From Planctomycetota bacterium (GTDB lineage: Bacteria > Planctomycetota > UBA1135 > UBA2386), in the NCBI GenBank assembly GCA_016794565.1, contig JAEUHQ010000103.1, positions 34,409 to 98,408 of the forward strand: a DNA stretch of 64,000 bases, in the 5' to 3' direction. Of the stretch, positions 4,955-41,363 are shown one piece after another. Position 1 is the stretch's first letter. Every line of letters begins with the position of its first letter. The notes below the pieces were generated by a model, which did not search any database, was not told the DNA's origin, and was given only the letters and a program-made list of their open reading frames with translations. A program made the translations under genes and the position numbers.

Positions 4955-5044
4955 CGATCACTTCGGTGAGTGGTCCACGCGCCCGCAGGGAGATCTGTCC
5001 GTGCGAGCCGCAAGCATGGCCGCGACGGTCGGATCCTCCCGCGC

Positions 5045-6556
5045 TCAGCCCGGCAGCAACCCGCCTTCGAGCTTCACGTAGGCACGCATGCCCTGGCGGC
5101 CGCCTTCGCGGCCGAACCCACTCTCCTTGAAGCCACCGAACGGCGACGCGGCGTCGAAGCGGTTGAACGTGTTGTTCCAGACCACGCCCGCCTTCATGCG
5201 TTCGGCGCACCACAGGATGCGTGCGCCCTTGTCGGTCCAGATGCCCGCGGACAACCCGTAGCTCGTGTTGTTCGCCTTCTCGACGGCTTCTTCCGGCGTG
5301 CGGAACGTCAGCACCGCGAGCACCGGCCCGAACACCTCTTCCCGCGCGATGCGGTGGCTCATCGAGACGCCCGTGAACATCGTCGGCGGGAACCAGAATC
5401 CCTTGCCCGGCAGATCGCACGCGGCCTGGTGCATCGACGCTCCGCCCTCCGCGCCGGCGGCGCAGAGTTCGCGGATGCGCGCGAGCTGCGCCTTGCTGTG
5501 GATCGCGCCCATGTCCGTGTTCTTGTCGAGCGGGCTGCCGACGCGGATGCGCGCCATGCGCCGCTGCAGCTTCTCGACGAACAGATCGTGCACGCTCTCC
5601 TGCACGAGCAGGCGTGAACCGGCGCAGCAGACGTGCCCTTGGTTGAAGAAGATGCCGCGCACGACGCCCTCGACCGCCTGGTCGAGCGCCGCGTCCTCGA
5701 ACACGACGTGCGCCGCCTTGCCGCCGAGTTCGAGCGTCAGCTCGACACCACGGCCGGCGACCGCCTTCTGGATCTCCTTGCCGACTTCCGTGCTGCCCGT
5801 GAACGCGACCTTCGCGAGGCCCGGATGGCGAACGAGCGCCTGGCCGGTGCGGCCGTCGCCGGTGATCACGTTGACGACGCCGGGCGGCAGCCCCGCCTGC
5901 TGCAACACTTCGCAGAGGCGCAGCGCGGTGAGCGGCGACGTCTCCGCGGGCTTCAGCACGACCGTGTTCCCCGCCGCGAGAGCGGGCGCGATCTTCCACG
6001 CGGCCATCAGCAGCGGGAAGTTCCACGGGATCACCTGCCCCACCACACCGAGCGGTGCGGGAGTCTGTCCGGGGAACAGCAGGTCGAGCTTGTCGGCCCA
6101 GCCCGCGTGGTAGAAGAAGTGCTGCGCCGCGAGCGGCACGTCGACGTCGCGCGTCTCCTTGATCGGCTTGCCGTTGTCGAGCGTCTCGAGCACGGCGAAC
6201 TCGCGCGCCCGCTCGAGCAGGATGCGAGCGATGCGGAACAGGTAGCGCGCGCGGTCCTCGCCGGAGAGCGCCTTCCACTTCGGGAACGCACGCTGCGCGG
6301 CCTTCACCGCTGCGTCGACGTCCTTGTCGCCGGCTTGCGCGACCTCGGACAGCGTCTTCTCCGTCGCGGGGTCGATCGTCGCGAAGTGCTCGCCGGACTT
6401 CGGCTTCGTCCACGCGCCGTCGACGAACAGTTCGTGGCGAGGTGCGATCGTCACGTGATCGGTCGCTTCGGGTGCTTGCTCGTAACGCCACACGCGGCCG
6501 AACTCGAGCTCGGGCTTCGCCGCGGAATCCTGCGTCTTCTGGTCGTTCTTGGCCAT
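5045..6556 (-). CDS. NAD(P)-dependent aldehyde dehydrogenase (503 aa)
   Basis: Full ORF with ALDH-family motifs: catalytic region FFNQGHVCCAGSRLLV, ELGGKAA and GTVVLKPAE. Lies immediately downstream of deoC on the same strand. Confidence 0.9.
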   Translation of the reverse strand: MAKNDQKTQDSAAKPELEFGRVWRYEQAPEATDHVTIAPRHELFVDGAWTKPKSGEHFATIDPATEKTLSEVAQAGDKDVDAAVKAAQRAFPKWKALSGEDRARYLFRIARILLERAREFAVLETLDNGKPIKETRDVDVPLAAQHFFYHAGWADKLDLLFPGQTPAPLGVVGQVIPWNFPLLMAAWKIAPALAAGNTVVLKPAETSPLTALRLCEVLQQAGLPPGVVNVITGDGRTGQALVRHPGLAKVAFTGSTEVGKEIQKAVAGRGVELTLELGGKAAHVVFEDAALDQAVEGVVRGIFFNQGHVCCAGSRLLVQESVHDLFVEKLQRRMARIRVGSPLDKNTDMGAIHSKAQLARIRELCAAGAEGGASMHQAACDLPGKGFWFPPTMFTGVSMSHRIAREEVFGPVLAVLTFRTPEEAVEKANNTSYGLSAGIWTDKGARILWCAERMKAGVVWNNTFNRFDAASPFGGFKESGFGREGGRQGMRAYVKLEGGLLPG

Positions 6557-6571
6557 GGCGTGTGCTCCGCG

Positions 6572-7480
6572 TCAGTCGGCGCTGAAATCGGTCGGGCGCT
6601 GGTAGCGGCCCGTGCGTTCCTTCTCGAGCTGCATCAGCACGTCGTTCAGCAGGGAACTCGCTCCGAAGCGGAACCACTGCGGCGACAACCAGCGGTCGCC
6701 GCACGTCTCCGCGACGAGCACCAGGTACTTGAGCGCGTCCTTGCTGGTGCGGATGCCGCCCGCGGCCTTCACGCCGACCATGCGTCCGGTCTCGAGATAG
6801 TGGTCGCGCACCGCCTCGAGCATCAGCAGCACGACCGGCAACGTGCTCGCCGGTGCCACCTTGCCGGTGCTCGTCTTCAGGAAGTCGCCGCCCGCGAGCA
6901 ACGCGATGCGGCAGGCACGCCGGATGTTGTCGTACGTGCGTAGCTCGCCGGTCTCGAGGATCACCTTGAGGTGCGCGTCGCCGCAGACCTCCTTCACGGC
7001 GCAGATCTCGTCGAAGACCTGACCGTAGCGTCCGGCGAGGAAGGCGCCGCGGTCGATCACCATGTCGATCTCGGTGGCACCGGCGGCGACCGCGAGCTGC
7101 ACTTCGCGCAACTTGGTCGGCCGGTCGGTGCGTCCCGACGGGAAGCCGGTCGCGACGGCGGCCACCTGCACGGTGCTGCCGCGCACCGCCGCCGCGGCGA
7201 CCTCGACGAGATCCGGGTAGACGCACACTGCCGCGCACGACGGCACGTCGGCGCGGGCCGGCAACGGCCGCATCGCCTTCTGGCACAACTGCCGCACCTT
7301 GCCCGGCGAGTCCATGCCTTCGAGCGTGGTGAGGTCCATCATCGAGATGGCGAGGCAGAGACCCTGCACCTTCGCCTTCTTCTTGATGGATCGCGTGCCG
7401 AGATCGGCAGCGCGCGTCTCGAGCGCGACCGCGTCGACGGGCGGCACACGGAACTCGACGGGAGACAGCGAGTGGGACAT
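6572..7480 (-). CDS. deoC: Deoxyribose-phosphate aldolase (302 aa)
   Basis: Start MSHSLSPVEF, with cat at 7478-7480 on the plus strand. DeoC motifs LKVILETGEL and Schiff-base lysine region GGDFLKTSTGKV. The 5' extension of the ORF is R-rich artefact. Confidence 0.85.
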   Translation of the reverse strand: MSHSLSPVEFRVPPVDAVALETRAADLGTRSIKKKAKVQGLCLAISMMDLTTLEGMDSPGKVRQLCQKAMRPLPARADVPSCAAVCVYPDLVEVAAAAVRGSTVQVAAVATGFPSGRTDRPTKLREVQLAVAAGATEIDMVIDRGAFLAGRYGQVFDEICAVKEVCGDAHLKVILETGELRTYDNIRRACRIALLAGGDFLKTSTGKVAPASTLPVVLLMLEAVRDHYLETGRMVGVKAAGGIRTSKDALKYLVLVAETCGDRWLSPQWFRFGASSLLNDVLMQLEKERTGRYQRPTDFSAD

Positions 7481-7570
7481 CGCGGGACACGCGATCGTGC
7501 CGTATCCGCAAGGGGAAGTCACGGCCGCGGCCTCCAGTCGCCGCGGTGCCGGCGCCGATGACGCCGGGAC

Positions 7571-8452
7571 ATGATCGAAGTCCGCATTCCCCTGCACGAC
7601 CAGGGTACGGGTCACCGTGGCGAACTGCGCATCGCGGGTGGCGTGTGGGCGGGCGACGTCTGCGCCTTCGAGTTCGTCGAGACGCTGCACGGCATGTCCG
7701 GAACCGCTGTCTGCGACTGGCGCGAGCCGGAGACGCGACTGTTCGTCGACGACGGAGCTGCGGCCGACCCGAGCGCGAACCTGCTGCTCGACCGGATCCG
7801 CACCCTGCTGCTCCCGTTCCACCGCGGCTCGTGGAAGCGCGCCGCCGCCGCGCGGATCGCGGCGCTCCACACCTGCGATCACCGGGGCACGGGGACCGGC
7901 TCGACGGAGAGCGCCCGGCAGGCCGCGTTCGAGAAGGACGTTCTCGACCAGGTCGTGCGACTCGGCGAGCCGCGCAAGGTGCTCGACGTCGCGTGCTCGG
8001 TCGGCGAAGGCGTGAGGCAGCTGCGTGCGCGCGGCGTCGAAGCGTGGGGCTGCGACCCGAGTCCCGATCTCCACCGCATCGCGCTTCCCGACGTCGCCCG
8101 ATGGCTGCGTCGCGGCGCGGTCGACGCGCTCCCGTTCGGCCCCGAGGACGGATTCGACACCTTGCTCGCATTCGACGTCTTCCAGCACCTCGCCGAGGAC
8201 CGCATCGCGCGGATGGTCACCGAATTCGCGCGGCTCGGCGTGCAGCGCGTCGTCGCGCGCATCGCCCTGTGCGAGTTCTCCGATCCGGGCCACGTCACGC
8301 TGCGTCCGCTGTCGTGGTGGGATCGCCAGATGGCACCCTGGTTCCAGCGACGCGCGGGGAAGGCCCTTCCCGAAATGGCGATCGCGTCCGGTCTCGATCC
8401 CGCGAACTTCCTGCGCGTCTACGAACTCTCCAAGGTGCCCGCGGCGGTGTGA
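7571..8452 (+). CDS. Class I SAM-dependent methyltransferase (293 aa)
   Basis: MTase motif I VLDVACSVGEG and acidic motif II LAFDVFQHL. Normal amino-acid composition. Confidence 0.6.
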   Translation: MIEVRIPLHDQGTGHRGELRIAGGVWAGDVCAFEFVETLHGMSGTAVCDWREPETRLFVDDGAAADPSANLLLDRIRTLLLPFHRGSWKRAAAARIAALHTCDHRGTGTGSTESARQAAFEKDVLDQVVRLGEPRKVLDVACSVGEGVRQLRARGVEAWGCDPSPDLHRIALPDVARWLRRGAVDALPFGPEDGFDTLLAFDVFQHLAEDRIARMVTEFARLGVQRVVARIALCEFSDPGHVTLRPLSWWDRQMAPWFQRRAGKALPEMAIASGLDPANFLRVYELSKVPAAV

Positions 8453-10745: not shown

Positions 10746-10760
10746 CCGGCGCGCCCGTGT

Positions 10761-12959
10761 ATGGTGCGTCGCATGCGAACTCCGATCGCCGCTGCCGCGA
10801 CGCTGACGTGCATGGCCGTGCTCGCCGCCCAGGAAGGCGTGCCGCGACCCCAGGGCCTCGTGCCCGAACAGATGTGGCCCGCGCCCGGGGAAAGCGACTG
10901 GAAGAAGCCCGTCGTCATCCAGTGGCAGCGCACGTGGGACGACGCCGTGCGCCTGTCGCAGGCGACGAAGCGCGCGATCCTCGTGTGCGTCAACATGGAC
11001 GGCGAGATCGCCAGCGAGCACTACGCCGGCATTCGCTATCGCGACCCCGAGATCGGCAAGCTGTACGAACCGTACGTCTGCGTGATCGCGTCGGTCTACC
11101 GCCACAACCCGCGCGACTACGACGACCAGGGGCGCCGCATCCCGTGCCCGCGCTTCGGCTGCGTCACGTGCGGCGAGCACATCGCCCTCGAACCGCTCGT
11201 GTACGAGAAGTTCCTGAAGGGCAAACGCATCGCGCCGCGCCACATCATGGTCGAGCTCGACGGCAGCGAGAGCTACGACATCTACTACCGGTGGGACACC
11301 GCATCGGTGTTCAAGGACATCGCGGACGGCATCACGAACCGGAAGGTGCAGACGGTGCCCCTCGTGAAAGGCGACCGTTCGCTGCTCGAGCGCCTCGAGA
11401 GTCCCGACAGCGCCGATCGACAGCAGGTCGAGAGCGAGTTCGCCAAGGCGACTCCCGAACAGCGCCGCGCGATGGTCGCCGCCGCGATCGGCGCCGGCGA
11501 ACTGGCGCCCGTCGAGATCCTGCGTCTCGCGGCGTGGGGCCTCGATCCGGCGCTGGCGCAGGAAGCGCGCAAGGGCATGGTCGTCGCCAAGGACCCGGGC
11601 ACCGTCAACCTGATCGCCGAGACGCTGCGCGCGCCGCTCGAACACGAGGAGCGCAAGGAGCTGGTCGCGGCCTTGGGCCGCTTCGGTTCGACGTCGACGT
11701 ACGCACAGGCGCTCGCGACCGCACATCAGGGTCTCGACGGCACGACCACCTCCATCGACACCGGCAAGTGGTCGCGCGCACTCGCCGCGCAGACCTACGC
11801 ACCGCCCGCGAGCGAGGATCTCACGACGGCGCTCGAGCAGAGCGACAAGGCCCTGGCCGCCGAGCCGTCGGACCCCGCGGCCCGGCTCGACGCAGCCGAA
11901 GCGAGCCTGCTGCAGGCGCTCGACACGACATCGAGCGGCGGGCGCGGATCGGCGCGGCGAACCGCGGCGGCCCGGCAGTCCCTGCTCTCCGATGCGGAAC
12001 GTCAGGCGAACCTGGCGATCGCGCAAGGTGCGACCGGCTGGCGCCCCACCGCGTTGCGGGCGATCGCCGCGTTCCACCTCGGGCGCGTGCCGGAGGCGCA
12101 CCAGCTCGCGGTCGCGGCGGCGCCCGACCTGCCCCCCGATGCGCCGGGTCGCGTCGCGATGGAAGTGCTCGCGCTGTTCGCCGTGGCCCGGCAGCACGCG
12201 ATCGTCGCCGCGGTGCGCAACAAGCAGACGTGGCCGCCGCAGTGGGCCGCCGACGTGCACGCGGCCTACGCCGTGCTCGCGCACCATCCGCTCGGCCGCG
12301 ACGAACACGCCGCGGATCACTACGACTTCCTGAAGTTCTTCAGCAGCCCCGAGACCGACGCGGTGCTCGACCGCGCCCTCGAGCGCTTCCCCGAGTCGGC
12401 GCTGCTGCACCAGCGGCTCCGCGACCGCATCCTCGAACGGCGCGACCCGGACGCACTCGAGGCCGAGTACGCACGCCGGTTGAACGCGCCGGAAGCGCGC
12501 CCGTCGCTGTCGTGGTTCGCCGGCTACGCGTCCCTCGTCGCAGCCGAGCAGAACCGCCGCAACCAGCGCCGCGAGAACGCTCTCGCCGCGTACCGGCGCG
12601 GCATCGAGCACTTCGAGACGTACGCGAAGCGCTCCGGCAACGAAGACGGCAACCACTACGTCGCGATGGCGAACGCCGGCATCGCGCGCCTGCAGCTCGA
12701 CGCCGGCGACCTGCCCGGCGCGCTGGCCTCGCTGCAGCTCGCCTTCCGCACCGCACCGCTCGCGGCGGCCGCGGTCGACGGGCTCGGCGTCACCGCGGTG
12801 CAGACCGCGGACATGCTGCGTGCGCGCGCCGTCGAGACGAACGCGCAGGACGTCGTACAGGCCGTCGACCAGGCCCTCACGGCACTGCCCGACGAGGCGC
12901 TGATCCCGCCCGAGTACGAACGCGCCTCCGGCAACACGAAGATCCGCCGCCGGCGGTGA
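10761..12959 (+). CDS. Secreted hypothetical protein (732 aa) with N-terminal Cys-rich region and helical-repeat C-terminal half
   Basis: Signal peptide MRTPIAAAATLTCMAVLAAQ. The Cys cluster CPRFGCVTCGEH, plus a CV 25 aa upstream. Ala/Leu-rich helical C-terminal part with real-protein composition. Confidence 0.65.
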   Translation: MVRRMRTPIAAAATLTCMAVLAAQEGVPRPQGLVPEQMWPAPGESDWKKPVVIQWQRTWDDAVRLSQATKRAILVCVNMDGEIASEHYAGIRYRDPEIGKLYEPYVCVIASVYRHNPRDYDDQGRRIPCPRFGCVTCGEHIALEPLVYEKFLKGKRIAPRHIMVELDGSESYDIYYRWDTASVFKDIADGITNRKVQTVPLVKGDRSLLERLESPDSADRQQVESEFAKATPEQRRAMVAAAIGAGELAPVEILRLAAWGLDPALAQEARKGMVVAKDPGTVNLIAETLRAPLEHEERKELVAALGRFGSTSTYAQALATAHQGLDGTTTSIDTGKWSRALAAQTYAPPASEDLTTALEQSDKALAAEPSDPAARLDAAEASLLQALDTTSSGGRGSARRTAAARQSLLSDAERQANLAIAQGATGWRPTALRAIAAFHLGRVPEAHQLAVAAAPDLPPDAPGRVAMEVLALFAVARQHAIVAAVRNKQTWPPQWAADVHAAYAVLAHHPLGRDEHAADHYDFLKFFSSPETDAVLDRALERFPESALLHQRLRDRILERRDPDALEAEYARRLNAPEARPSLSWFAGYASLVAAEQNRRNQRRENALAAYRRGIEHFETYAKRSGNEDGNHYVAMANAGIARLQLDAGDLPGALASLQLAFRTAPLAAAAVDGLGVTAVQTADMLRARAVETNAQDVVQAVDQALTALPDEALIPPEYERASGNTKIRRRR

Positions 12960-13833: not shown

Positions 13834-14742
13834 GTGAAGCAAAGCCCGCCTCCCCGCCGCGTTCTCCTGATCGCGAACCCGATCTCGGGCGGTGGCCGGG
13901 CCCGCACCCTCGCCCCTCGCCTCGCCGCCGCTCTCGTGCAGCGCGGCGTGGCTGCCGAAGTCCACTTCACGTCGGCCGCTGGGGACGGCGCGGCTCGGGC
14001 GCGCGCGGCGGCGATCGAGGCCTGGGACGGCGTCGTCGCGATGGGCGGTGACGGAACCGTCAACGAGCTGTTGAACGGCATGCCCGATCCGGGCCGCTCG
14101 CTCGGTGTGTTCCCGATCGGTACCGCGAACGTGCTCGCGAAGGAACTGCGCCTGCCCCACCGCCCCGACGCGGCGGCGGCCACGATCGCCGCGGGGCACC
14201 AGCGCAGCCTCGCGATCGGCGAGTGCAACGGCCGGCGGTTCCTGCTGTTCGTCGGCGCGGGAATCGACGGCTCGGTCGTGCAGCGGCTCGCCGCCGTGCG
14301 GTCGGGGACTCTCGGCAAACACAAATGGCTCGGTCCGATCCTGCACACGGTGTGGCACTGGCCGCGCCACTCGCTGGCTGTGACCTTCGCGGACGGGACC
14401 CGGCTCGAAGGGCTGCGGTCCGTGCTCGCGACCCGGGTCCGCAACTACGGCGGGGTGATGCAGCTCACGCCGGGCATCGATCCCGACGACGGCTTCCTGC
14501 ACGTCCTGTGCTTCCGCGCGGCCAGCCGGACACGATGGGTGTGGATGGGCGCGCGAGCGATGCTCGGCCGTTTGCGGCCGGGCCCGCTCCTCGAGGTGCG
14601 GGCGACGACCGCCGTGCGCATCGAAGGCAGCGCACCCTTCCAGATCGACGGCGACCATGGCGGTTCGTGTCCGGCGGATCTGCGCGTGCTGCCCGTGCGG
14701 GCGTCGATCTGGGCGCCCGCCGCGCACGCGCGGCGTCAGTGA
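13834..14742 (+). CDS. Diacylglycerol/lipid kinase catalytic-domain protein (YegS/BmrU family), GTG start (alternative TTG at 13819)
   Basis: No in-frame ATG exists; GTG at 13834 gives VKQSPPPRRVLLIANPISGGG. The DAGK_cat motif GGDGTVNE is present. Divergent from the RfbD-like gene with a 27-nt spacer. Confidence 0.65.
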   Translation: MKQSPPPRRVLLIANPISGGGRARTLAPRLAAALVQRGVAAEVHFTSAAGDGAARARAAAIEAWDGVVAMGGDGTVNELLNGMPDPGRSLGVFPIGTANVLAKELRLPHRPDAAAATIAAGHQRSLAIGECNGRRFLLFVGAGIDGSVVQRLAAVRSGTLGKHKWLGPILHTVWHWPRHSLAVTFADGTRLEGLRSVLATRVRNYGGVMQLTPGIDPDDGFLHVLCFRAASRTRWVWMGARAMLGRLRPGPLLEVRATTAVRIEGSAPFQIDGDHGGSCPADLRVLPVRASIWAPAAHARRQ

Positions 14743-15932
14743 TCGCCGACGCGACTCGAGAGCCCGTTGCTGGTGACGACTCCGAGGGTGTTGGCGAGGT
14801 CCCCCACGACGAACGGCGTCACGAGCGCGATCGCCTGCGCATGGATCGTGGTACCCGGCGGCATCGCGGGCGGAAAGCTCACGTCGAACCGGATCGTCGC
14901 CGCGGGAGCGACCGCGAAGAACACGACGTCGAACGACGCCAGGTAGGACGCGCAGCCCGGGGCTCCGAGCGCCGCGAGGTCGATCCCGCCGGCGACCTCG
15001 CTGGCGGCGAGGGCCAGGAACCCGAGCCGTACGCCGGACCCGACGATCGCTTCGGGTGCGTCCACCATGGTGTAGTGCACGAGCGTGCCAGCCTCCGAGG
15101 TGGAGACCGGCGGCGGCGCAGCCGCGAGACCGAGTGAGCGCAGGTCCGGCGACGTGACGATGGAATCACCGACGTGCAGCGGCGGCGGCACGAGCGATGG
15201 CCCGCCCGGCGAGTAGCCGACGAGGTGCGCCGAGCCGAACGGCGAACTCGTCGCGCCATCGACCGCGACCCAGACGTAGCGCACACGGCCCGAGTCGAGA
15301 CCGAACTGGAACTGGAACGTGCCGCGGTTCGGGACTCCGGCGGGGAAGTTCTCGACGTCGCGCCACGTGACGCAGAACCAGCTCTCGCCACCGGCGACGG
15401 CCTCGTGGGTCGTGATGCGACCGCTGCCCGGCTCCGCCGGGTTCCAGTCGTGCCACGCGAAGAACGCGGTGTCCGGCGCGGCGGCGAAGCGCGGGCTCGG
15501 TGTGAAGTCGTTCGGCGGCGAGTTCCACGCCCCCCCGTCGATACCCGGGCCGGTCGCGACGATGCCGTTGCTGTGCACCCAGATCGTCGACGCAGCGCCA
15601 TCGAGGGTCGGGAGCGGTCGCGGCAGCGCGACTGCAACCTGGCCGTCGTCGCTCGGCGGCAGGAGTGCCGCGTTCGCACCGGGCTGCAGGTAGCCGCCCA
15701 TGCCCCACGACCCCACGTAGCCGAGGCCCGAGGGATGGAGTTCCAACGAACGCCCGGTCAACACGAGCGATGCCACAGCGGCGTCGGGCAGCAGCACGAA
15801 GAAGGAGTCGCGCGCCGACTCGTGGCAGCCCTGACCGAAGGCGAGATGCGACGCCGCGCCGCCGTTCGGGTCCTGTGCCGGCAGCATCGCCGACACGAGG
15901 CAGACGATCCCGATCGTGGGTACCGCGCGCAT
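14736..15932 (-). CDS. Family B secreted paralog, copy B1 (398 aa; single internal module)
   Basis: Start MRAVPTIGIVCLVSAMLPAQ is a signal peptide, with cat at 15930-15932. Motifs shared with B2/B3: TIWVHSNG, CVTWRDV..TFQFQFGLDSGRVRYVW, and the C-terminal tail GAPGC...VTPF...VTSNGLSS. Convergent 7-nt overlap with the lipid-kinase gene. Confidence 0.65.
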   Translation of the reverse strand: MRAVPTIGIVCLVSAMLPAQDPNGGAASHLAFGQGCHESARDSFFVLLPDAAVASLVLTGRSLELHPSGLGYVGSWGMGGYLQPGANAALLPPSDDGQVAVALPRPLPTLDGAASTIWVHSNGIVATGPGIDGGAWNSPPNDFTPSPRFAAAPDTAFFAWHDWNPAEPGSGRITTHEAVAGGESWFCVTWRDVENFPAGVPNRGTFQFQFGLDSGRVRYVWVAVDGATSSPFGSAHLVGYSPGGPSLVPPPLHVGDSIVTSPDLRSLGLAAAPPPVSTSEAGTLVHYTMVDAPEAIVGSGVRLGFLALAASEVAGGIDLAALGAPGCASYLASFDVVFFAVAPAATIRFDVSFPPAMPPGTTIHAQAIALVTPFVVGDLANTLGVVTSNGLSSRVGDH

Positions 15933-16140
15933 GCCGAACGCTACCTCGCCGCCGAGGCACGGTGCCTGCAGCCCGCTCCCGGCGCCAGCGTGCGTCGCGA
16001 CGGCGCCCACGGGACCGGACCTCCCGACGCGCGGGCCGCGCGGCTCAGGTCGGGACGCTGCCAACAGAGCGGGCCCGCACCACCGTGAGGCGCGGGCCCG
16101 CGGGATCGAGGGCAGCTCGACCCGTTCGGCTTCGACCGGG

Positions 16141-16164
16141 CGAGCGAAGCCCGGGGTTCGCTCG
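16141..16164 (-). terminator. Putative GC-rich stem-loop 5 nt downstream of the B2 stop (no U-tract)
   Basis: cgagcgaa-gcccgggg-ttcgctcg forms a perfect 8-bp stem. A second dyad (two copies of the palindromic gcgggcccgc) lies at ~16068-16103. Confidence 0.25.
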
Positions 16165-16168
16165 GTCC

Positions 16169-18010
16169 TCAATAGGTATTGAAGATCGACTGCAGACCGT
16201 TGCTCAGCACGCCACCGAATGCGTTCTGGCCGTTGGGCAGGCTGAACGGCGTGAAGAGGCCCAGCACCTGACCATAGAAGCTGAGGCCCGGCGACAGCGG
16301 CTGCGGCATCGACAGCACGACCGACGACGTCGGAGCAGTGCCAGGCAGCGGGATCGTGACGTCGAGCGACAGGATGTTCAGGTTGCAGCCCGGCATGTCG
16401 AGGAAGCCCATGTCGAGGCCGCCGGGGAACGGAGCCACACTGAACATCAGGATGCCGAGGCCGATGCCGAGCGGCGGCACGAGGTCGATCATGTTCGAGG
16501 CCGTGTACGTGATCGGCACGGTCGGATTGCCGGGCGTGTAGATCGGCGCCGGGGACGCGGACAGGGCGAGGGCCTGGGTCGCGTTGTAGTCCGGCTGCGT
16601 GAGGAACGGCGGCACGGTCGCGAGGCTGATCGAACCCGGATCGAGCGACAGACCCGGCGAGTAGCCGACGACCATGTCGATACCGGCCGAGTTCTGCATC
16701 GCGTTCCACACGAACTTCACGTCGCCGTTGGCGAGGTTGAACTGCAACTGCCAGCGATCGGAGACGCCGGTCGTGTTGTAGCGGACGACGTTCTCCCACG
16801 TGATGTAGAGCACACCACCGACTTCCTGGCTCTTGATCGCTCCGCCCGCCGACGGGTCGTAGTCGGCATTGCTGCGGAAGGACGGGATCACCGCGTTGAG
16901 CAGTTCGAACACGTCGCCGTAGGCAGCGACGTTGTTGTTGCCGATGCCGCCCATGTTCACGAATCCGTTCGAGCACACCGACAGCGTGCCGACCGGACCT
17001 GCGGGCGTCGGGAAGGGGATGCTCGGCGTGACGTCGACTTCGGAGTCGTCGGTCAGCGCGAGCGTCGAGGCGCCACCGGTCGGCGCGACGTAGGTCCCGC
17101 CGCCCCACGTGACGAAGTAGCCCTGGCCAGCGGGCGACATCGTCATCGAGTTGCCCGCCAGGGTCGCCGACCCGGCCGGCGTGCCGAAGTACTGGTAGAA
17201 GGCCTGCGACGCGCGCGGTCCGTAGCAGCCGGAGCCGTACGCGACGTGGTCGGCGCCCGTGCACACGACCGACGAGGTGTAGCCACCGAGCCCGTTCGGC
17301 GAGAAACGCAGCGTCTTGCCGGCGAGCGGGAAGGCACCGAGGTATTCACCCCAGAGGATGCCGACGTTGCCCGAGTTGGCGCCCGCGAGCAGATCGGAGG
17401 CCACCTCCGCCCCCGTGCCCGCCGCGTTGCCGGCCGACACGCCGATCCAGACCGCGTCGACGGCGTTGCCGGGGCAGTTGATGTCGTACGCGTAGTCGAT
17501 GTTGCCGTTGCTGTACAGCGTGCAGCTGAAGCTGAACTGGTCGGTCGGGGTCTGGTACCGCGCGACGTTCTGCCACGTGATCGTGACCTGGTTCGCCGTC
17601 GCCGTGTTCACGAAGATCTCCCACGGGCCGAGCGTCGATTGCTGGATGTCGTCGCCGTAGACGACGAGGCGCGGCGAGCCGAACGCGGCACCGCGCAGTT
17701 CCCCGAGTGTGTCGATCAGGAACTGGATCGGAGCGACGAGGCCGTAGTTCGCGTCGGAGAGATAGACGTGCCCGTTCGAACCGACCCAGATGCGGTTGCA
17801 GACCTGGCCGGGCGCCGTGGTCGGCATCGGGAAGGTGAACCCGAGCTGGATCGGCAGGATGCTGCGGCCTTCGTCGTGGATCGGGTAGCCGCCCCACACC
17901 GAGTACATGGAACCGGATTGTGCGGCGCCGCCGATGTTGGTGAAGCACTGCGCCTGCGACACCGCGGCGAGGGCCGCCACGGCGGAGAAGGAAGCGATGA
18001 GACGATTCAT
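16169..18010 (-). CDS. Family B secreted paralog, copy B2 (613 aa; two internal modules)
   Basis: Complete ORF with signal peptide [22 protein letters not shown]. Duplicated module ITWQNVARY...[18 protein letters not shown] and ITWENVVRY...[17 protein letters not shown]-terminal tail [13 protein letters not shown]...LSNGLQS. Confidence 0.75.
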
Positions 18011-18216
18011 GGAGTTGCCTCTGGGACTTGGGGAGATTCCTGCCAGCGGTCGGAACGACCGGGGGGAGACGAGGAAGGAACCCGGGGAGGACGGTAGTCG
18101 AGGGCCAGGAAATGTCCACCCGGGCCGCCGCGCCGCCGCGCCCGAGCCGCCGCGCCAGCGCGTGGCGGCCGACTCCGAAGGAGCGACCCCGCGCCGAGGC
18201 CGCTAGGATCGTGCCG

Positions 18217-19053
18217 ATGGATCGACCTGCTCCTCGCGAAGTCCGCGTCGGCAACGTGCCGTTCGGCGGCGGCAATCCGTTCGCCCTGATCGCCGGCCCG
18301 TGTGTCATCGAGAACCGCGACCACGCGCTGCGCCACGCCGAGGCGCTGCAGCGAATCTGCCGCGCCGCCGGCGTCCCGCTCGTGTTCAAGAGCAGCTTCG
18401 ACAAGGCCAATCGCACCGCGGGAACGGCATATCGCGGCCTCGGCATCGACGAGGGTCTCGCGATCCTCGGCGAAGTGAAGCGCTCGTTCGGCGTGCCGGT
18501 CCTCACCGACGTGCACGAACGCGAACATTGCGCCACCGCGGCGGAGGTCGTCGACTGCCTGCAGATCCCGGCTTTCCTGTGCCGCCAGACCGACCTGCTG
18601 CTCGCAGCCGCGGCCACAGGTCGAACGGTCAACGTGAAGAAAGGTCAGTTCCTCGCGCCCGACGACGTCGGCAACGTGCTCGCGAAGGTCACCGGCGCCG
18701 GCAATCCGAACGCGATGATCACCGAACGGGGGGCGAGCTTCGGCTACCGAACGCTCGTCGTGGACTTCGCCGGGTTCCCCACGATGCGCGGGTTCGGCCA
18801 GCCCCTGGTCTTCGACGCCACGCACTCCGTGCAGCGACCGGGCGGCGCGGGCACGTCGACCGCGGGCGATCGCACGAAGGTCCCCTACCTCGCGCGCGCG
18901 GCCGTCGCCTGCGGCGTCGACGGTCTCTTCCTCGAGGTCCACGAAGACCCCGACCACGCTCCGAGCGACGGTCCCAACATGCTGCGGATGGACTCGCTCG
19001 CCGGCCTGCTCGGCGACCTCGTGCGGATCCAGTCGGCCGTGCGCGCGCGCTGA
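18217..19053 (+). CDS. kdsA: 3-deoxy-8-phosphooctulonate (KDO8P) synthase (278 aa)
   Basis: ATG at 18217 ([32 protein letters not shown]). KdsA motifs [19 protein letters not shown] and [10 protein letters not shown]. Confidence 0.9.
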
Positions 19054-19301: not shown

Positions 19302-19517
19302 CGCAACGGGCAGAAACGGCGAACGGACGCACCGAGGCGACTCGCGACCGGGGTGGCCACCCCACCGGGGAAAGGCCGAAGGCGGGACGGCGGCGGCGAC
19401 CCGTCCATCGCAGCGCGGCGTTGCCGGAGCGCCCCGGCATCCCGCGACGACCGCCCTCGTTGCCTGCCGTCCGCGGGCTACTATTCGGTGCGCAGCACCT
19501 CGGCTGGCATCCCCCGC

Positions 19518-20636
19518 ATGCGGACCCGCGATTTCTGGACCCTCGCCGCGACGTTGTCGCTCATCGCCAGCCTGGGACTCGTGTTCCTCGGCCAGGAGAC
19601 CTGGGCCGACGGAACGCGCCCCGACGCTCACGAGCCGGCCCACGTCGCGACCTCCGAGACCCGGACCGCGAACGGCGCGCCGACCGACGCCGCCGCGGTC
19701 GTCTCCGCGCAAGGCCCCGAGGCAGCCCCGGCGATCGCTCGCAAGAGCGAAGCAGGGGTCACCGACGCGACGACGGGCGTGATCCGCGGCGACATCCCGA
19801 TCGCCGTGTCGATCCTCGACCGCATCCAGTCGATCACGATCCACGTCGAAGAGGGACGCAACGCGATCGACGGCGACGGCCAGTTCCGGCCGCGACGCAC
19901 GTTCCTCGAACACGCGAAGCTCGGTCCGGGCACGCCGACGTTCGAAGTGCGCAACGTCCCGTTCTCGGAGTATCCGTGGATCGTCACGGCCTTCGCGCCC
20001 GGCCTGAACGGCGGCCGCGCGACCGTGATGCTGAACGCCGAGCATCCCGTCGCGGACGTCGCTCTGCCCGTCACCCCGGCGGCGCCGTTCACCATCCTGC
20101 TGCGCGACCAGGACCAGGCGCCGTACGTCGGCGTCGAGATCGTGCTGCAGCCCGTCGGCGAACCCGCCGGCCGCCCGAAGAAGGTCGCGACGACGGACTC
20201 GTACGGCAGCGCGGTCTACGAGGATCTGCTCGGCGGCGAGTACCGCGCGTTCCTCTCGATCGCCGGCCAGCCTCTCGAGGATCCGCAGTCCTTCGTGGTC
20301 CCGACCGCGACGCACGTCGTCGCGAGCACGGTGCAGGGCCATGGCACTACGATCACCATCGCGCGCGGCATGCCGCTGCAGGTTCGGGTCGCGGACGTTC
20401 GCGGCTACGGACTCGCCGACGTGACGGTCACCGCCACCGCGACGGATCAGGTCCGGCACAAGGCGATCGAACTCACCACGGATGCGACCGGCGTCGTCAC
20501 ATTCCCGCGCCTCCTGCCCGGCACGTGGCAGATCGACGTCCAGCGCACCGACTACCAGCGCAGCACGCGGCAGGTCACCGCCCGCGCCGGCGAACCGATC
20601 GAACCGATCGAGTTCCAGCTCGTCCGCCTGCGCTGA
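19518..20636 (+). CDS. Signal-anchored protein with carboxypeptidase-regulatory-like (CarboxypepD_reg / Cna-B-like) beta-sandwich repeats (372 aa)
   Basis: ATG at 19518, N-terminal anchor MRTRDFWTLAATLSLIASLGLVFLG. Repeats of the type TDATGVVTFPRLLPGTWQIDVQRTDYQ and VTDATTGVIRGDI. The upstream ORF portion is R-rich artefact. Confidence 0.55.
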   Translation: MRTRDFWTLAATLSLIASLGLVFLGQETWADGTRPDAHEPAHVATSETRTANGAPTDAAAVVSAQGPEAAPAIARKSEAGVTDATTGVIRGDIPIAVSILDRIQSITIHVEEGRNAIDGDGQFRPRRTFLEHAKLGPGTPTFEVRNVPFSEYPWIVTAFAPGLNGGRATVMLNAEHPVADVALPVTPAAPFTILLRDQDQAPYVGVEIVLQPVGEPAGRPKKVATTDSYGSAVYEDLLGGEYRAFLSIAGQPLEDPQSFVVPTATHVVASTVQGHGTTITIARGMPLQVRVADVRGYGLADVTVTATATDQVRHKAIELTTDATGVVTFPRLLPGTWQIDVQRTDYQRSTRQVTARAGEPIEPIEFQLVRLR

Positions 20637-20711
20637 TTCGTACCGCCGGCACAGATCGTCAACGGCGATCGCTTCCGACGCGTCGTTGGCTTGGGTAGAT
20701 TCCGCCGGCCC

Positions 20712-21191
20712 ATGGCCCAGCCGCTCGTCGACCTCGCCGCCCTCGACCTGAGCAGGAACGTCGTCAGCGAAGAGGATCTGCGCCAGGTGCTCCCGCATCG
20801 GGGAACTTTCCAGCTGCTCGACGGCGTGTGCCACCTCGACCTCGAGCAAGGCGTGGCGGTCGGCTACAAGGACTGGCCGGCCGATGCCTGGTGGGCGAAG
20901 GATCACGTGCCGGGCAAGCCTCTGATGCCGGGCGTCCTGATGATCGAAGGCGCTGCCCAGATCGCGACGTTCCTCGTCAAGAAGGTCGCATCGTGGGAGA
21001 TCGACCGCTTCGTCGGACTCGCCGGCGTGAACGACGTGCGCGTGCGCGGCCAAGTCGTGCCGCCGGCGCGCGTCTACTTCGTGAGCGGCAACTGCAAGGT
21101 CTCGGGTCGCCGCATGGCGCGCATGCCGGCGCAGGTCTTCTGCAACGGGCAGATGACGATGGAACTCGAACTGCTCGGGGTGATGTTGTGA
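20712..21191 (+). CDS. FabZ/FabA-like 3-hydroxyacyl-ACP dehydratase (hotdog fold; 159 aa)
   Basis: MAQPLVDLAALDL...LPHRGTFQLLDGV...HVPGKPLMPGVLMIEGAAQ matches the dehydratase active-site His region and hotdog helix. Confidence 0.65.
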   Translation: MAQPLVDLAALDLSRNVVSEEDLRQVLPHRGTFQLLDGVCHLDLEQGVAVGYKDWPADAWWAKDHVPGKPLMPGVLMIEGAAQIATFLVKKVASWEIDRFVGLAGVNDVRVRGQVVPPARVYFVSGNCKVSGRRMARMPAQVFCNGQMTMELELLGVML

Positions 21192-23092
21192 CCGCTGCCG
21201 CAGCGGCCGCACCGGCGCCGCTGCCGCGCTGGTTCCTGCTGCTGCCGCTCGTCGTCGCCGCCGCCTGGTGGCCGCTGGCGCCGTACTGGAAGAGCGACGA
21301 CTTCCTGATGCTGCACCACGCGAACGACGCGGCGCGCGTGCTCGGCGACTTCGTCGGACCGCAGTACGGCGCGACCGACGTCTGGTACTTCTGGCGCCCG
21401 CTGATGACGGCGAGCTTCTGGCTCGAACTGCAGCTCGGCGGCGGGCCGTCGCCGATGCTGTCGCACACGACGAACGTGCTCGTGCACGCGGGCAGCGCGC
21501 TGCTCGTGGCCCTCCTGTGGCGGCGCTGGATCGGCGGAGCGCGCGGTTTCGTCGCCGGCCTCGTCTGGGGACTGATGCCGGGACACGAAGGCGCCATCAC
21601 GTGGGCCGTGGGCCGCAGCGACGTGCACGGCACGTTCTGGTCGCTGCTCGCGATGCTGTGGTTCTGTCGGCGTCTCGAGGGGCGCGCACCGTGGTGGCCG
21701 TCGCTCCTCGCGACGACGTGTGCGCTGATGACGAAGGAGATCGCGTTCGTGCTGCCGGCCGCGGCGACACTGCTCGCGTACTGCCGCGATCCGGGTCGCG
21801 GTGCAGGCACCGCCCTGCGCGCGGCGGCGCCGATCTGGGCGGTCTTCGCGGTGTGTTTCGGATGGCGATTCCTCGCGCTCGGTCGCCTCGGCGGCTACGG
21901 CGACATGCCGCTCGCGCCGCTCCCGATGCTGCTCGGCTTCGGCCACGTCGTCGCCGACCTGCTCGTACCGCTGCGCTACGCGGGAGCGACAGCGTCGCAC
22001 TGGGCGTGGCTCGGCGCGGCGCCGGTCGCGCTCGTGATGCTCTGGCACTTCGCGCGCGGCGGTCCGCGGCGGCTCGCCGCGTCGACCGCGATGTTCGTCG
22101 CCGCGTGTGCGCCGATGGCGCCGTTCTTCGCCGCCTTCGCGAACACGCACAACCTCCGCTACTACTGCCTCCCCACCGCCGCGCTCGCCGGACTGTTCGC
22201 GCTGCCGCACCGCTGGTCCGCCGCCGCGCTGCTGCTGCTCGCGGCGTGGACCGCGCCGTTCGTCGCGCTGCGCAGCGCGGTGCACGACGCCGACGCGAAG
22301 GCGCGCGCAATGCACGGTGCCCTGCTGCAGCTCGCCCGCACCACGCCCACCGAACCGATCTTCGTCGCCGGTCTGCCGACCAGCGAAGGCGCCGCGGCCG
22401 TCGTCTTCCACTTCGGCGTGGACCGCATGCTGGCGCCGCCCTTCACGGAGCGGACCCACCGGTTGCTGCCGCTGCGGCCGGTCGTCGCCGGCGGATTCTC
22501 GCTCGGCGAGGATCGTGCGGACTTCGAGGCGCTGCCGGCAGGTTCGACGTGGCAGTTCGCGCGACCCGATCTGCTCGCGCAGCGGACCGCAGTGTCGCCG
22601 TTGCCCGACCTGCCGATCGCCGGTGACGACCGCGGCGTCGTCGACGTGACCTCCGGGCGTCTCGCGGCGATGGAGAAGGACGAGCGCGGCCTGTGCCTCG
22701 ACACCGGCGTCGCGCGGACTCAGGCCTGCCGGCTCACGATCTTCACGGCGCTCGGCTACCTCGCATGCCTGTTCCCCGACCACGGGAAGGAAGGCGAACG
22801 GCACGGCGCCATCGACATGCTGCAGTTCTTCGCCGGCGAGCGTGCGCTCGGCCTGCCGCCCGAGACGGCACGGCCCACGTTCGCTTCGTTCGCCCCCGGC
22901 GCGTTCGCGACCTTCGCGCTCGGCATCCCGACCACCCACGACCTCGTGCCCGAGTTCCCCGCGCTCGTCGAAGTCGGCTCGATGCAGGGCGACACGTTCG
23001 TGCCGTCGCACAGGGCCCGCCGGCTGTTGACGCTCCGCTTCGACCGCGGCTATCAGGCATGGGTCCGGCGCGCTTTCAACCTCGGCGGCTGA
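21188..23092 (+). CDS. GT-C superfamily membrane glycosyltransferase (ArnT/PMT-like), GTG start overlapping the FabZ-like stop (634 aa)
   Basis: ~10 transmembrane helices in the N-terminal 400 aa, then a soluble C-terminal domain. GTG at 21188 overlaps TGA 21189-21191 (GTGA), and no in-frame ATG lies nearby. The upstream part of the ORF is R-rich artefact. Confidence 0.6.
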   Translation: MTAAAAAAPAPLPRWFLLLPLVVAAAWWPLAPYWKSDDFLMLHHANDAARVLGDFVGPQYGATDVWYFWRPLMTASFWLELQLGGGPSPMLSHTTNVLVHAGSALLVALLWRRWIGGARGFVAGLVWGLMPGHEGAITWAVGRSDVHGTFWSLLAMLWFCRRLEGRAPWWPSLLATTCALMTKEIAFVLPAAATLLAYCRDPGRGAGTALRAAAPIWAVFAVCFGWRFLALGRLGGYGDMPLAPLPMLLGFGHVVADLLVPLRYAGATASHWAWLGAAPVALVMLWHFARGGPRRLAASTAMFVAACAPMAPFFAAFANTHNLRYYCLPTAALAGLFALPHRWSAAALLLLAAWTAPFVALRSAVHDADAKARAMHGALLQLARTTPTEPIFVAGLPTSEGAAAVVFHFGVDRMLAPPFTERTHRLLPLRPVVAGGFSLGEDRADFEALPAGSTWQFARPDLLAQRTAVSPLPDLPIAGDDRGVVDVTSGRLAAMEKDERGLCLDTGVARTQACRLTIFTALGYLACLFPDHGKEGERHGAIDMLQFFAGERALGLPPETARPTFASFAPGAFATFALGIPTTHDLVPEFPALVEVGSMQGDTFVPSHRARRLLTLRFDRGYQAWVRRAFNLGG

Positions 23093-28605: not shown

Positions 28606-29079
28606 TCAGCTCTCGACGAACCCGGAGTCGTCGAGGAGGTCGCCGCCCGAGGCGGCGGCCACCGCGAGCTGGTCGCAGCGTTCGTTCTCGGGATCCCCGG
28701 TGTGGCCGCGCACCCACTTCCACGTCACGTCGTGCGGCTCGAGCGCGCGCAGCAGCCGCACCCACAGATCCTGGTTCTTCACCGGCTGCTTGTTCGCGGT
28801 CTTCCACCCGCGCTTCTGCCAGCCATCGATCCAGTTCTTCGTGAAGGCGTGCACGACGTACTGCGAGTCGGACCACGCCGTCACCGCGCACGGACGCTTC
28901 AATGACTCGAAGCCGACGATCGCGCCGAGCAGCTCCATGCGGTTGTTGGTCGTGCGACGGTAGCCGGCCGACAGCTCCTTCCGGTGCCCGCCCGCGAGCA
29001 GCACCGTGCCGTACCCACCGGGGCCGGGATTGCCGAGGCACGCACCGTCGCTGTAGATCGTGACCACGGTCGCCGTCAT
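28606..29079 (-). CDS. rnhA: Ribonuclease HI (157 aa)
   Basis: [31 protein letters not shown] and SDSQYVV are the RNase H catalytic D/E/D motifs. cat at 29077-29079. Confidence 0.9.
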
Positions 29080-29684
29080 GGCTCCGGAATACCGGGCCGA
29101 TGCGCCGCGGACAACGTCGCGGCGAATCGCTCGAGCTCCGGCCACAGTTCGTCGAAGTCCGCGGCGAATGCCGCGCGCTCCCGCCGCAGGATCTCGCCGC
29201 CCGCGGCGAGCGGCGTCGGGCGTGCGACGCGGCCCGCCATGCGCTCGAGCACGGCGTCGATGCCCGCGAGCGTCGAGTACTCGAAGAGCCAGCGTTCGCG
29301 CCGCATCCACGGCAGCACGCTCCGCAGACGCGGCGGCAGGTGCGCTTCGTTTCGCGCCAGCAGATCGTGCACGTCGTCGACGAACTGCGTCAGCGGACGG
29401 CCATCGCCGAAGCGATCCCAACCGCTCGCGAGGAAGTGGTCGAAGTACACGTCGACGAGCACTCCGGCGAAGCGACGGAACGGCGGCTCGAACCGACCGC
29501 GGGCGCGGCGCACCACCGTGTGCGCGTCGACGAAGCGGTCGATCGCCCGGTGCTGCTCGATTCCGGCGCGCACGTCGTCGTGCAGCAGCGCCGTGTCGAC
29601 GCCGCGAACGAAGTCGCCGGCGAGATTGCCGACCCGCACGAGCGGGGCAGCGGGCGCGAGTCGCAGGTGTGCCAGCCAGTTCAC
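29076..29684 (-). CDS. Acyl carrier protein phosphodiesterase (AcpH)-like, GTG start (202 aa)
   Basis: [10 protein letters not shown]...[10 protein letters not shown] resembles the AcpH N-terminus (MNFLAHLHLA). 4-nt overlap with the rnhA start. Confidence 0.55.
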
Positions 29685-29792
29685 GCCGGCAGCATCCGCC
29701 GCAGTGCACGGCGCGCCAACGTGCGACCCGGAAACGCGAACGGGCGCCCGCGGCGCCCGTTCACGATGCCGGCGAGCCGGCACACGCGCTCG

Positions 29793-31691
29793 TCAGAACA
29801 GGTTGCAGAGCGAACGGACGCCGTTGCTCAGCACGCCGCCGAACGCGTTCTGGCCGTTCGGCAGGCTGTTCGGCGCGAAGAGCGACAGCGCCTGCGAGTA
29901 GAAGCTCACGCCGGGAGCCAGCGGCTGCGGGATCGACAGCGTCGCCGTCGCGGTCGGCGCCGTGCCCGACATCGGGACCGTCACGTCCAGCGACAGGATG
30001 TTCAGGTTGCAGCCGGGCATGCCGAGGAAGCCCATGTCCAGGCCGCCCGGGAACGGGGCGACGCTGAACATCAGCAGCGTGATGCCTACGCCGAACGGCG
30101 GAACGACGTCGACGACGTTCGTCGCCGTGTAGGTGACCGGCACGGTCGGACCGCCGAGCGTGAACACCGGGTCCGGCGACGCCGACAGCGCGAGCGGCTG
30201 CAGGACAGTGTCCGGCGAGGTGATTGCAGGCGTTCCCGTCGCGAGGCTGATCGAGCCAGGGTCGTTGGAGGGGCCGGCCGGCGAGTAACCCACGACCGTG
30301 CCGCCGAACGGCGTCGTCGCGGTCATCAGGTCCCACACGATCAGGACCTCACCGGTGTTGAGGTTCAACTGGAACTGGAAGCGGTCCGTGTCCTGCGTCG
30401 TGAAGTAGCGGACGAGGTCGATGTAGGAGACGACGAGCAGCGTGCCGCCGACCGTCGGAACCTCTTCCCAGCTGATCGAGCCGGTGACACCCGGGTCGTA
30501 GTCCGCGTTGCTGCGGAAGCTCGGCACGAACGCGTTGAGGAGTTCGTACACCGAGCCGTAGGCCCAGACCGGATTCGAGCCGGACGGGCCCATGTTCACG
30601 AAGCCGTTCGAGCACACCGACACCGTCGGCACGGCGCCGCTGATGGTCGGGAAGGCGAGCGACGGGGTGATGTCCGCTTCGCTGTCGTCCGTGAGGAACA
30701 GCTGGTTCGCGCCGCCGGTGGGAGCGATCCACGCGCCGCCGCCCCACGTCACGAGGTAGCCGGTGACGAGCGGGTTGAAGCGCACCGAGTTGCCGGTGAG
30801 GCCGGCGGACGACGACGGGCCGTCGGGGAAGTACTCGTAGATGGCCTGCGACGCGGACACGTAGTCGTAGCAGCCGCTGCCGTACGGATCGTTGCGGGCG
30901 CCCGCGCAGATCAGGTTCGACGTGAAGCCGCCGATGCCGTTCGGCGAGAAGCGCACCGTCGTGCCGGCGAGGTCGAACGGATTGCCGAAGAACGGATCGA
31001 ACGTCTGGTAGAGCAGGCCGAGCGTGCCGGAGTCGGCATTGCCGCTGAGATCGCTCTCCGGCGTGGCGAACGAACCGACGCCACCGCCGATGGACACGCC
31101 GACGATGTACGGAGTGCTGCCCGCCAGCGCAGTCGCCGAGTCGTACGAGACGTCGATCTCGCCCGACGCGTAGAGCGTGCAGCTGATGTTGAACGAGCCG
31201 GTCGGGCTGCCGCCCGAGTAGAGCCACACGTCGACCCACGTGACCCTGCACTGGCCGGGCACCGACTGGTCGATGGCAACCTGCCACGCGCTGTTCGTGC
31301 CGAAGTCGAGGTCGCTGCCGAACGCCGCGATGCGCGGCGAGGCGATCGAGCTGAAGCCGCGCAGCTCGTCGAGGTAGGTGATGCCGTAGTCGGTCGGCTG
31401 CAGCAACCCGTAGTTGCCGTCGGTCAGGTAGATCTCGCCGTTCGACGAGACGTAGATGCGGTCGATGGTCCGCGGGGCTCCCGCCATCGGGAACACGAAG
31501 CCGAGCGGGACCGACGGCACGGTCAGGCCTTCGTCCGACACCGTGTAGAAGGATGTCGTCGGCAGCAGCGTTGCAGCAGCGCCGGAGGGAGCTCCGAGAC
31601 ACTGCGCCGCGGCTGCGGACGCGAGGAGAGACGCCACGAGCACACTGGGGGCATGGAAAGACACAGGAACCTCCGTTTGGAGACGAGTCAT
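29793..31691 (-). CDS. Family B secreted paralog, copy B3 (632 aa)
   Basis: Start MTRLQTEV (cat at 31689-31691) with signal peptide ...LLASAAAAQC. Collinear with B2 throughout: duplicated VTW...F.FQLNL module and tail [13 protein letters not shown]...LSNGVRS. Blocks of >30 nt are identical to B2 at 29985-30060 vs 16361-16440. Confidence 0.75.
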   Translation of the reverse strand: MTRLQTEVPVSFHAPSVLVASLLASAAAAQCLGAPSGAAATLLPTTSFYTVSDEGLTVPSVPLGFVFPMAGAPRTIDRIYVSSNGEIYLTDGNYGLLQPTDYGITYLDELRGFSSIASPRIAAFGSDLDFGTNSAWQVAIDQSVPGQCRVTWVDVWLYSGGSPTGSFNISCTLYASGEIDVSYDSATALAGSTPYIVGVSIGGGVGSFATPESDLSGNADSGTLGLLYQTFDPFFGNPFDLAGTTVRFSPNGIGGFTSNLICAGARNDPYGSGCYDYVSASQAIYEYFPDGPSSSAGLTGNSVRFNPLVTGYLVTWGGGAWIAPTGGANQLFLTDDSEADITPSLAFPTISGAVPTVSVCSNGFVNMGPSGSNPVWAYGSVYELLNAFVPSFRSNADYDPGVTGSISWEEVPTVGGTLLVVSYIDLVRYFTTQDTDRFQFQLNLNTGEVLIVWDLMTATTPFGGTVVGYSPAGPSNDPGSISLATGTPAITSPDTVLQPLALSASPDPVFTLGGPTVPVTYTATNVVDVVPPFGVGITLLMFSVAPFPGGLDMGFLGMPGCNLNILSLDVTVPMSGTAPTATATLSIPQPLAPGVSFYSQALSLFAPNSLPNGQNAFGGVLSNGVRSLCNLF

Positions 31692-41238: not shown

Positions 41239-41363
41239 CCGCGAATTCACGAGGCTCCAGGAGCGGGCACGCAAGGCACTTCGACGTTTCGTCCGCGACT
41301 CGTCAAGTCCGGCGGGCGCACGCCCGAAAAACACCGCAGACAGGATCCGGACGAGGCCACGAC

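Follow-up and report, generated by a model that had tools for sequence, protein, structure and literature searches.

A multi-copy planctomycete protein family with nested NIDO-like modules and a strictly C-terminal Ig-like domain as a possible surface anchor

What kind of proteins are B1 and B2, which are encoded side by side on the minus strand of a 64,000-nucleotide stretch of Planctomycetota DNA (assembly GCA_016794565.1, contig JAEUHQ010000103.1, positions 34,409 to 98,408; the whole stretch is called the window here), and what could be the role of the domain with which both of them end? Exact protein matches to B1 (MBL8749511.1) and B2 (MBL8749512.1) identify the source of the window as a Planctomycetota ("Planctomycetes bacterium") metagenome-assembled genome (MAG), in which both are annotated as "hypothetical protein". 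The two genes and a third full-length paralog in the window, B3, are real, conserved, multi-copy genes whose products carry a signal peptide and one or two NIDO-like modules, homologous to each other, and end in an immunoglobulin (Ig)-like domain whose position is strictly terminal and which occurs on unrelated passengers as well. The architecture begins with a signal peptide, continues with none or one free-standing NIDO-like module, and ends with a cassette that consists of an H..YGxGC strand, a nested NIDO-like module and an Ig-like sandwich of ~140 aa, the "tail". B1 is the bare cassette, and B2 and B3 are the cassette with one extra module in front. With roughly an even chance of being right, B1, B2 and B3 are read here as members of a multi-copy family of Sec-exported, all-beta, disulfide-stabilised envelope or surface proteins in which the tail would serve as a shared anchoring or sorting domain. 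The genes are:

16169-18010, minus strand: coding sequence of B2 from the list of open reading frames (ORFs), 613 aa plus stop, ATG start, locus tag JNK78_10160
14736-15932, minus strand: coding sequence of B1, 398 aa plus stop, ATG start, locus tag JNK78_10155
29793-31664, minus strand: B3, third full-length paralog, 623 aa from the GTG at 31664 with a GGAGG site; alternative ATG at 31691
30891-31601, minus strand: module 1 of B3 (family hidden Markov model (HMM), E 7.5e-80)
30207-30887, minus strand: module 2 of B3 (family HMM, E 7.5e-86)
29796-30221, minus strand: tail of B3 (family HMM, E 2.4e-59)

Third-position GC is 0.89 in B1 and 0.91 in B2, which is of the coding type for a genome of 70% GC (window GC is ~70%), GAGG-like ribosome-binding sites precede both genes, and AlphaFold2 models B2 with a mean pLDDT (predicted local distance difference test) of 86.5 and B1 with one of 89.4. 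For B2, 58 homologs were found. B1 and B2 are true paralogs, as B1 residues 27-393 align by BLASTP with B2 residues 253-608 at 32% identity (E 3e-39). A BLASTP comparison of B2 with itself shows no internal duplication, but with hhalign profiles built from 34 homologs (alignment A1), module 1 and module 2 of B2 align over 148 columns with a probability of 97.5% (E 7e-12). A preliminary description, which had been made from the letters of the window, had proposed a family of secreted paralogs in which a module is duplicated internally and the tail is conserved, and on these two comparisons the proposal holds, the duplication being confirmed at the level of profiles and not by BLASTP. The motifs it quoted, among them TIWVHSNG, PGC, TPF and SNG, are all present in the sequences, and the single cysteine that it saw in the tail is C542 in B2 and C327 in B1. 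Its boundaries had to be redrawn, however: the repeated unit comprises ~210-230 aa and not ~170 aa, the supposedly separate N-terminal motif xIWVxSNG is part of the module and occurs three times (B2 residues 74-81, "TLSVCSNG" in B2, and B1), and the tail, with "LALSASPAP" as its start, is a domain that measures ~140 aa, where ~75 aa had been supposed. Between B2 and B3, identity climbs toward the C-terminus, from 40% in module 1 via 56% in module 2 to 72% in the tail. The nearest relative of B1 is P0135, a one-module protein of 396 aa. The idea that B1 might be a recent truncated copy of B2 was rejected, as B1 is 62% identical to one-module proteins such as P0135, ~45% to the cassettes of other two-module proteins, and 32% to B2.

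The tail lies at these positions in B2 and B1:

16172-16597, minus strand: C-terminal Ig-like domain (tail) of B2, residues 472-613, containing C542, LPNGQNAFG and SNG
14739-15161, minus strand: C-terminal Ig-like domain of B1, residues 258-398, with C327 (tail HMM, E 3.2e-37)

It extends over ~140 aa from L.LSASPAPV to the last residue, is modelled as a beta-sandwich, and has no match in Pfam (consensus, even at E 10), in NCBIfam or among PDB sequences. Its profile (A2, 139 positions), searched against 1.84 billion cluster representatives, matches 3370 of them at E<=1e-3, 649 at E<=1e-10 and 96 at E<=1e-30. The match ends no more than 5 residues from the C-terminus in 193 of 198 tail-bearing proteins and forms a single stretch in all but one of 150 listed proteins, and this at protein lengths from about 100 aa (fragments) to 1936 aa. 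What lies N-terminal of the tail is highly diverse: an M4 peptidase with propeptide and PPC, DUF5122/Rax2 propellers, FG-GAP repeats, DUF4082 with DMFA2_C and Big_5, SdrD_B with LamG, a C25-like peptidase, GSDH, ThuA, and a nidogen-type G2F domain. The G2F protein, P0152, is a metagenomic sequence of 381 aa: a signal peptide is followed by G2F (PF07474, E 1e-16, 61.7 bits), then by a YGVGC strand, and the tail closes the chain. NIDO-like and G2F, the two domains of nidogen type, are thus both represented on tail-bearing relatives. At the very end of the chain, one of the two C-termini of B1 and B2 reads …VTSNGLSSRVGDH, and both are modelled as beta-strands. A terminal aromatic residue as in a beta-signal was considered and is not diagnostic, since only 56% of the proteins end in F, Y or W.

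The range of passengers bears on an alternative according to which these are ordinary periplasmic proteins and the tail is a lineage-specific structural or oligomerisation domain without any role in targeting. GSDH and ThuA are typically periplasmic, the Sec signal peptide is the one export signal that is evident, and no sorting machinery was found nearby, all of which would suit this alternative; but the M4 peptidase with propeptide and PPC, FG-GAP, SdrD_B and DUF4082 are typical of extracellular or surface proteins, and neither the strictly terminal position of the tail nor its high conservation would be explained, which is why it is regarded as improbable. Somewhat better, though still on the doubtful side, stands the idea that the tail, alone or with the nested module, is a ligand- or glycan-binding module resembling carbohydrate-binding modules (CBMs) or lectins, which would target the proteins to an external substrate and make B1-B3 soluble or matrix lectins. 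The position of CBMs usually varies, however, and tandem copies are frequent among them, whereas the tail is terminal and near-always a single stretch. Sequence matches to CBM or lectin families are also missing: no curated match was obtained, and Pfam gives nothing on tail or modules except NIDO. Moreover, no other part is as conserved across the paralogs as the tail, which agrees better with a single shared partner than with a variety of substrates.

The tail is not simply appended to the modules, as the arrangement of the cassette indicates:

17261-17947, minus strand: NIDO-like module 1 of B2, residues 22-250, bounded by C22 and C250 (hhalign against module 2)
17225-17248, minus strand: H..YGxGC strand of B2, HVAYGSGC, residues 255-262, with C262 as presumed partner of C542
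16598-17224, minus strand: NIDO-like module 2 of B2, residues 263-471, nested between YGxGC strand and tail
15825-15848, minus strand: H..FGxGC strand of B1, HLAFGQGC, residues 29-36
15162-15824, minus strand: NIDO-like module of B1, residues 37-257 (module-2 HMM, E 4.6e-59)

A NIDO-like module directly precedes the tail in 167 of the 198 tail-bearing proteins. Full-length proteins in which no module is detectable have the motif [AS].H..YGxGC[YH].P immediately before the tail, whereas in B1, which has nothing but a signal peptide in front of its cassette, and in B2 the YGxGC-type motif precedes the module. The shifted place of the motif indicates that the second NIDO-like module is an insertion between the first strand of the C-terminal domain and its remainder. 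Residues Y258, G259, G261 and C262 of the strand in B2 are invariant or nearly so. The cysteines of strand and tail (C262 and C542 in B2) go together: among proteins with both columns covered, both are present in 146 and both are missing in 2, and no protein has one without the other. Such a co-occurrence is as expected of a disulfide, and C262 and C542 are thus presumed to form one that clamps the base of the insertion. The predicted TM-score (pTM) of the B1 model, 0.81, would fit a cassette that is one rigid unit. Module 1 of B2 and B3 is bracketed by a cysteine pair of its own, C22, which comes right after the A/Q site of the signal peptide (the slash stands for the cleavage site), and C250; of 93 copies, 86 have the two cysteines. 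The nested, disulfide-clamped arrangement would make these proteins a clear example of domain insertion.

Export by the Sec pathway is suggested by the N-termini:

17951-18010, minus strand: signal peptide of B2, residues 1-20, followed by QC; n-, h- and c-regions and A-x-A/Q site read from sequence
15876-15932, minus strand: signal peptide of B1, residues 1-19, …VSAMLPA/QD, read from sequence

Both N-termini, as they read, have the basic n-region, the hydrophobic h-region and the A-x-A-type site of Sec type I signal peptides, and the classical n-h-c signal peptides that had been claimed for B1 and B2 are indeed there, in both cases ending at A/Q. Residues A20, Q21 and C22 of B2 are conserved to at least 90% in alignment A1, pLDDT is below 50 at B2 residues 1-20 and at B1 residues 1-21, where AlphaFold2 gives a low-confidence helix, and by a crude heuristic 129 of 159 complete family proteins have an N-terminus resembling a signal peptide. 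A lipoprotein lipobox, L-[AS]-[GA]-C with the cysteine at +1, was considered and rejected, as B2 has …AVSQA/QC, with the cysteine at +2 and a glutamine before it, and B1 has …MLPA/QD. The signal peptides of tail-bearing proteins nearly always end in …A/Q (AQC, PAQ, SAQ), which implies that the mature proteins would start with glutamine, possibly as pyroglutamate.

As to the modules, the preliminary description could not place the family, and on the level of curated models this remains so: in Pfam and NCBIfam scans no model reaches its threshold on B1 or B2, nothing specific comes from the PDB, and the annotation of both is as uninformative as mentioned. The tail, too, maps to no characterised family, and it sits on proteins with signal peptides, so that description is left intact in these respects. 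The sole trace in the scans is NIDO (nidogen-like, PF06119) on B2 residues 139-175, with 11 bits and E 0.44. It is the relatives that make a link to NIDO credible. P0052, a one-module homolog (E 2.6e-24 to B2), reaches 25.6 bits against a gathering threshold of 25 (E 1.4e-5, profile positions 78-149), and its match falls in the region that is equivalent to module 2 of B2; P0174 has 23.8 bits (profile positions 3-57), the module-1 consensus E 0.015 (positions 82-115), and P0015 E 0.019 (positions 76-120). Among 84 further members, NIDO is the commonest Pfam match, with three members and a best E of 1.1e-6. Since every NIDO match in the family is colinear with the module, including those of P0052, P0174 and the consensus, it is credible that the repeated module is a divergent NIDO domain. 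When the tail and module profiles were used in word-indexed searches, nothing but short fragments came back, and these brought no further annotation.

From these parts, a path for the proteins can be proposed. They would be exported and then fold oxidatively in the periplasm, where the Ig-like tail together with the YGxGC strand may act as a common address or anchor that docks the protein to a shared envelope partner, and the more variable NIDO-like modules would be turned outward, to bind ligands or to build a matrix. In this scheme the tail would be retained on the mature protein and not cleaved off, as a whole domain is nested in it, as the putative clamp is covalent, and as there are cassette-only proteins such as B1. 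If it is retained, an anchor or docking function is likelier than that of a cleaved export signal. The corresponding alternative – that the tail is an outer-membrane secretion signal that is read by some translocon and then removed, in analogy to the C-terminal domain (CTD) of the type IX secretion system (T9SS) – would agree with the terminal position and the varied cargo, features that the tail has in common with that CTD, but retention speaks against it, and it is considered unlikely to a similar degree as the periplasmic one.

Several points weigh against a tail that anchors or sorts disulfide-stabilised, NIDO-bearing surface proteins. The strictly C-terminal position equally fits a terminal binding or oligomerisation domain, and the proteins may be periplasmic. 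In the 64-kb window and the examined flanks, no gene for secretion, for a sortase or for an exosortase-like protein came to light. The disulfides are deduced from the co-conservation of cysteines. Concerning the modules, B1 has no match to NIDO at E<=1, both B1 and B2 miss the Pfam gathering threshold of 25 bits, Foldseek found no match in the PDB at E<=1e-3, and the family profile gives only chance matches to PDB sequences (E>=0.24), so no solved structure resembles the module and its assignment to NIDO is one by sequence alone.

The distribution of the family was determined in a pattern scan that took one genome per species. It comprises 69 loci in 31 genomes, with several loci per genome, and all but two are labelled as Planctomycetota or members thereof. 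Loci without such a label are L062 (a Luminiphilus sp. MAG) and L061/L066 (uncultured bacterium), which may reflect binning contamination or a wider distribution. Tandem arrays are common, with up to five copies. In the MAG of the window, B3 is 12 kb away from the B2-B1 pair and is flanked by an acpH-like gene (29079-29792, minus) and valS (31860-35162, plus), and further family members are encoded on other contigs (P0009, JNK78_03770; P0207, JNK78_03755). In the closest public genome, the sister MAG GCA_964538915.1, the B2-B1 pair is present too, and its neighbourhood is the same. The surroundings of the pair include:

18028-19053, plus strand: kdsA-like gene for KDO-8-phosphate synthase, oriented divergently from B2; DAHP_synth_1 is found at this place in the syntenic locus L001
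15933-16168, minus strand: B2-B1 spacer of 236 nt; it contains a 13-bp GC stem-loop (16069-16101), and GAGG, resembling a Shine-Dalgarno site, precedes the ATG of B1

The locus of the B2 ortholog is conserved in at least 10 genomes, with kdsA divergent upstream and DAGK and an epimerase downstream, and in the sister genome the envelope-related genes kdsA, GT2, PMT_2 and FabA are found around it. Recurring Ser/Thr kinase genes were considered as a functional link and rejected: in the syntenic B2 locus they are found on the far side of kdsA, and the window lacks them, so that their recurrence is treated as synteny. In L007, L009, L013, L014, L032, L047 and L048 (at about 5000-7900 in each), such a kinase gene is located between a CarboxypepD_reg-like gene and kdsA, upstream of the B2 ortholog; the gene is absent from the window and from the sister MAG, and the nearest kinase-like ORF of the window is at 40204-41388 (minus). 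The ORF at 19353-20636 (plus) has 427 aa, its counterpart in L001 is a CarboxypepD_reg-like protein of 372 aa, and as a neighbour of kdsA/B2 it is conserved in 9 genomes; possibly it belongs to the other secreted family of the preliminary description. Two more ORFs, at 10746-12959 (plus) and 20699-23092 (plus), have 738 and 798 codons from stop to stop, coding-type third-position GC and no Pfam match at E<=1e-3, and the genes at the matching positions of L001, of 732 and 635 aa, are also without Pfam matches.

The spacer between B2 and B1 had been called hairpin-rich, which is not the case when the 236 nt are compared with shuffled sequence, as they fold no better (z = -1.49). There is one perfect 13-bp GC stem-loop in it (16069-16101, minus), GCGGGCCCGCGCC…GGTGCGGGCCCGC, and this stem-loop, the ~40 nt after it and the ribosome-binding region of B1 are kept in the sister genome (L001), where the other spacer sequence has diverged, including an 88-nt indel. 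Between B2 and B1, the stem-loop could serve to terminate the transcript or to stabilise the mRNA. Rfam families were not found anywhere in the window.

The module is a divergent member of a known, poorly understood superfamily, and the tail an undescribed domain in familiar use. An activated-sludge MAG survey reported Planctomycetota with many signal-peptide proteins of unassigned location (PMC11495043). The tail is a compact and easily recognised domain that marks thousands of secreted proteins and is not covered by a Pfam or NCBIfam model; should it indeed work as an anchor or as a tag for sorting, it could be used to predict directly which proteins these uncultivated bacteria have on their surface, and a search for the machinery that reads the tag could begin. 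A literature search on bacterial or planctomycete NIDO domains and on C-terminal sorting found nothing on this family, and bacterial NIDO-like modules and a G2F relative are documented here on tail-bearing proteins.

With NIDO (PF06119 and SMART NIDO; nidogen, alpha-tectorin, MUC4, SNED1), the module shares the order of motifs, F.FP..G....V.SNG...L followed by PR.a.fw.Dl, vTW..V..y and.FQ..L...G.v.f.Y, and a presumably extracellular, all-beta setting, and one tail-bearing relative has a nidogen-type G2F. The differences are the bacterial host, a member of the Planctomycetota, the cysteine pair that brackets the module of this family, and the nesting of one copy in another domain. The function of NIDO itself is poorly defined. 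To our knowledge, NIDO and G2F are otherwise known mainly from animal extracellular-matrix proteins, without a solved structure or a clear function.

The tail is likened to C-terminal sorting and anchoring domains of other phyla because it is near-always single, terminal, the best-conserved part, and present on peptidases, propellers and lectin-like domains. One parallel is the T9SS CTD of Bacteroidota (Por_Secre_tail PF18962, TIGR04183), which is likewise an Ig-like sandwich at the extreme C-terminus, occurs once per protein on varied secreted cargo, and has many copies per genome. The tail differs by its length of ~140 aa versus ~80 aa, by the upstream YGxGC strand that it needs, by the conserved cysteine pair, the frequent nested domain, and the phylum; a sequence match to the CTD was found neither for B1 and B2 (Pfam and NCBIfam, E<=1) nor for the tail consensus (Pfam, E<=10), and no T9SS machinery (PorK/L/M/N, Sov, PorU/V) was seen within the 64-kb window and flanks of up to 10 kb. 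Terminal carbohydrate-binding or FN3/Big-type modules differ from the tail, which is without family match, strictly terminal and near-always single, not variable or in tandem. PEP-CTERM/exosortase, LPXTG, MYXO-CTERM and GlyGly-CTERM have in common with it that a C-terminal element is shared by many secreted proteins of one lineage. A reading of the tail as a PEP-CTERM or LPXTG signal itself was rejected, as there is no signature motif with hydrophobic helix and basic cluster, B1 and B2 end in a folded beta-strand, and NCBIfam gives no match. A more specific form of the anchoring idea, tentative and well short of even, would make YGxGC strand and tail the recognition or attachment signal of an undescribed sorting or surface-display system that is specific to this uncultivated Planctomycetota lineage, with the B family as its most abundant, possibly matrix- or coat-forming cargo, and it would be a functional analogue of the T9SS CTD or of PEP-CTERM/exosortase.

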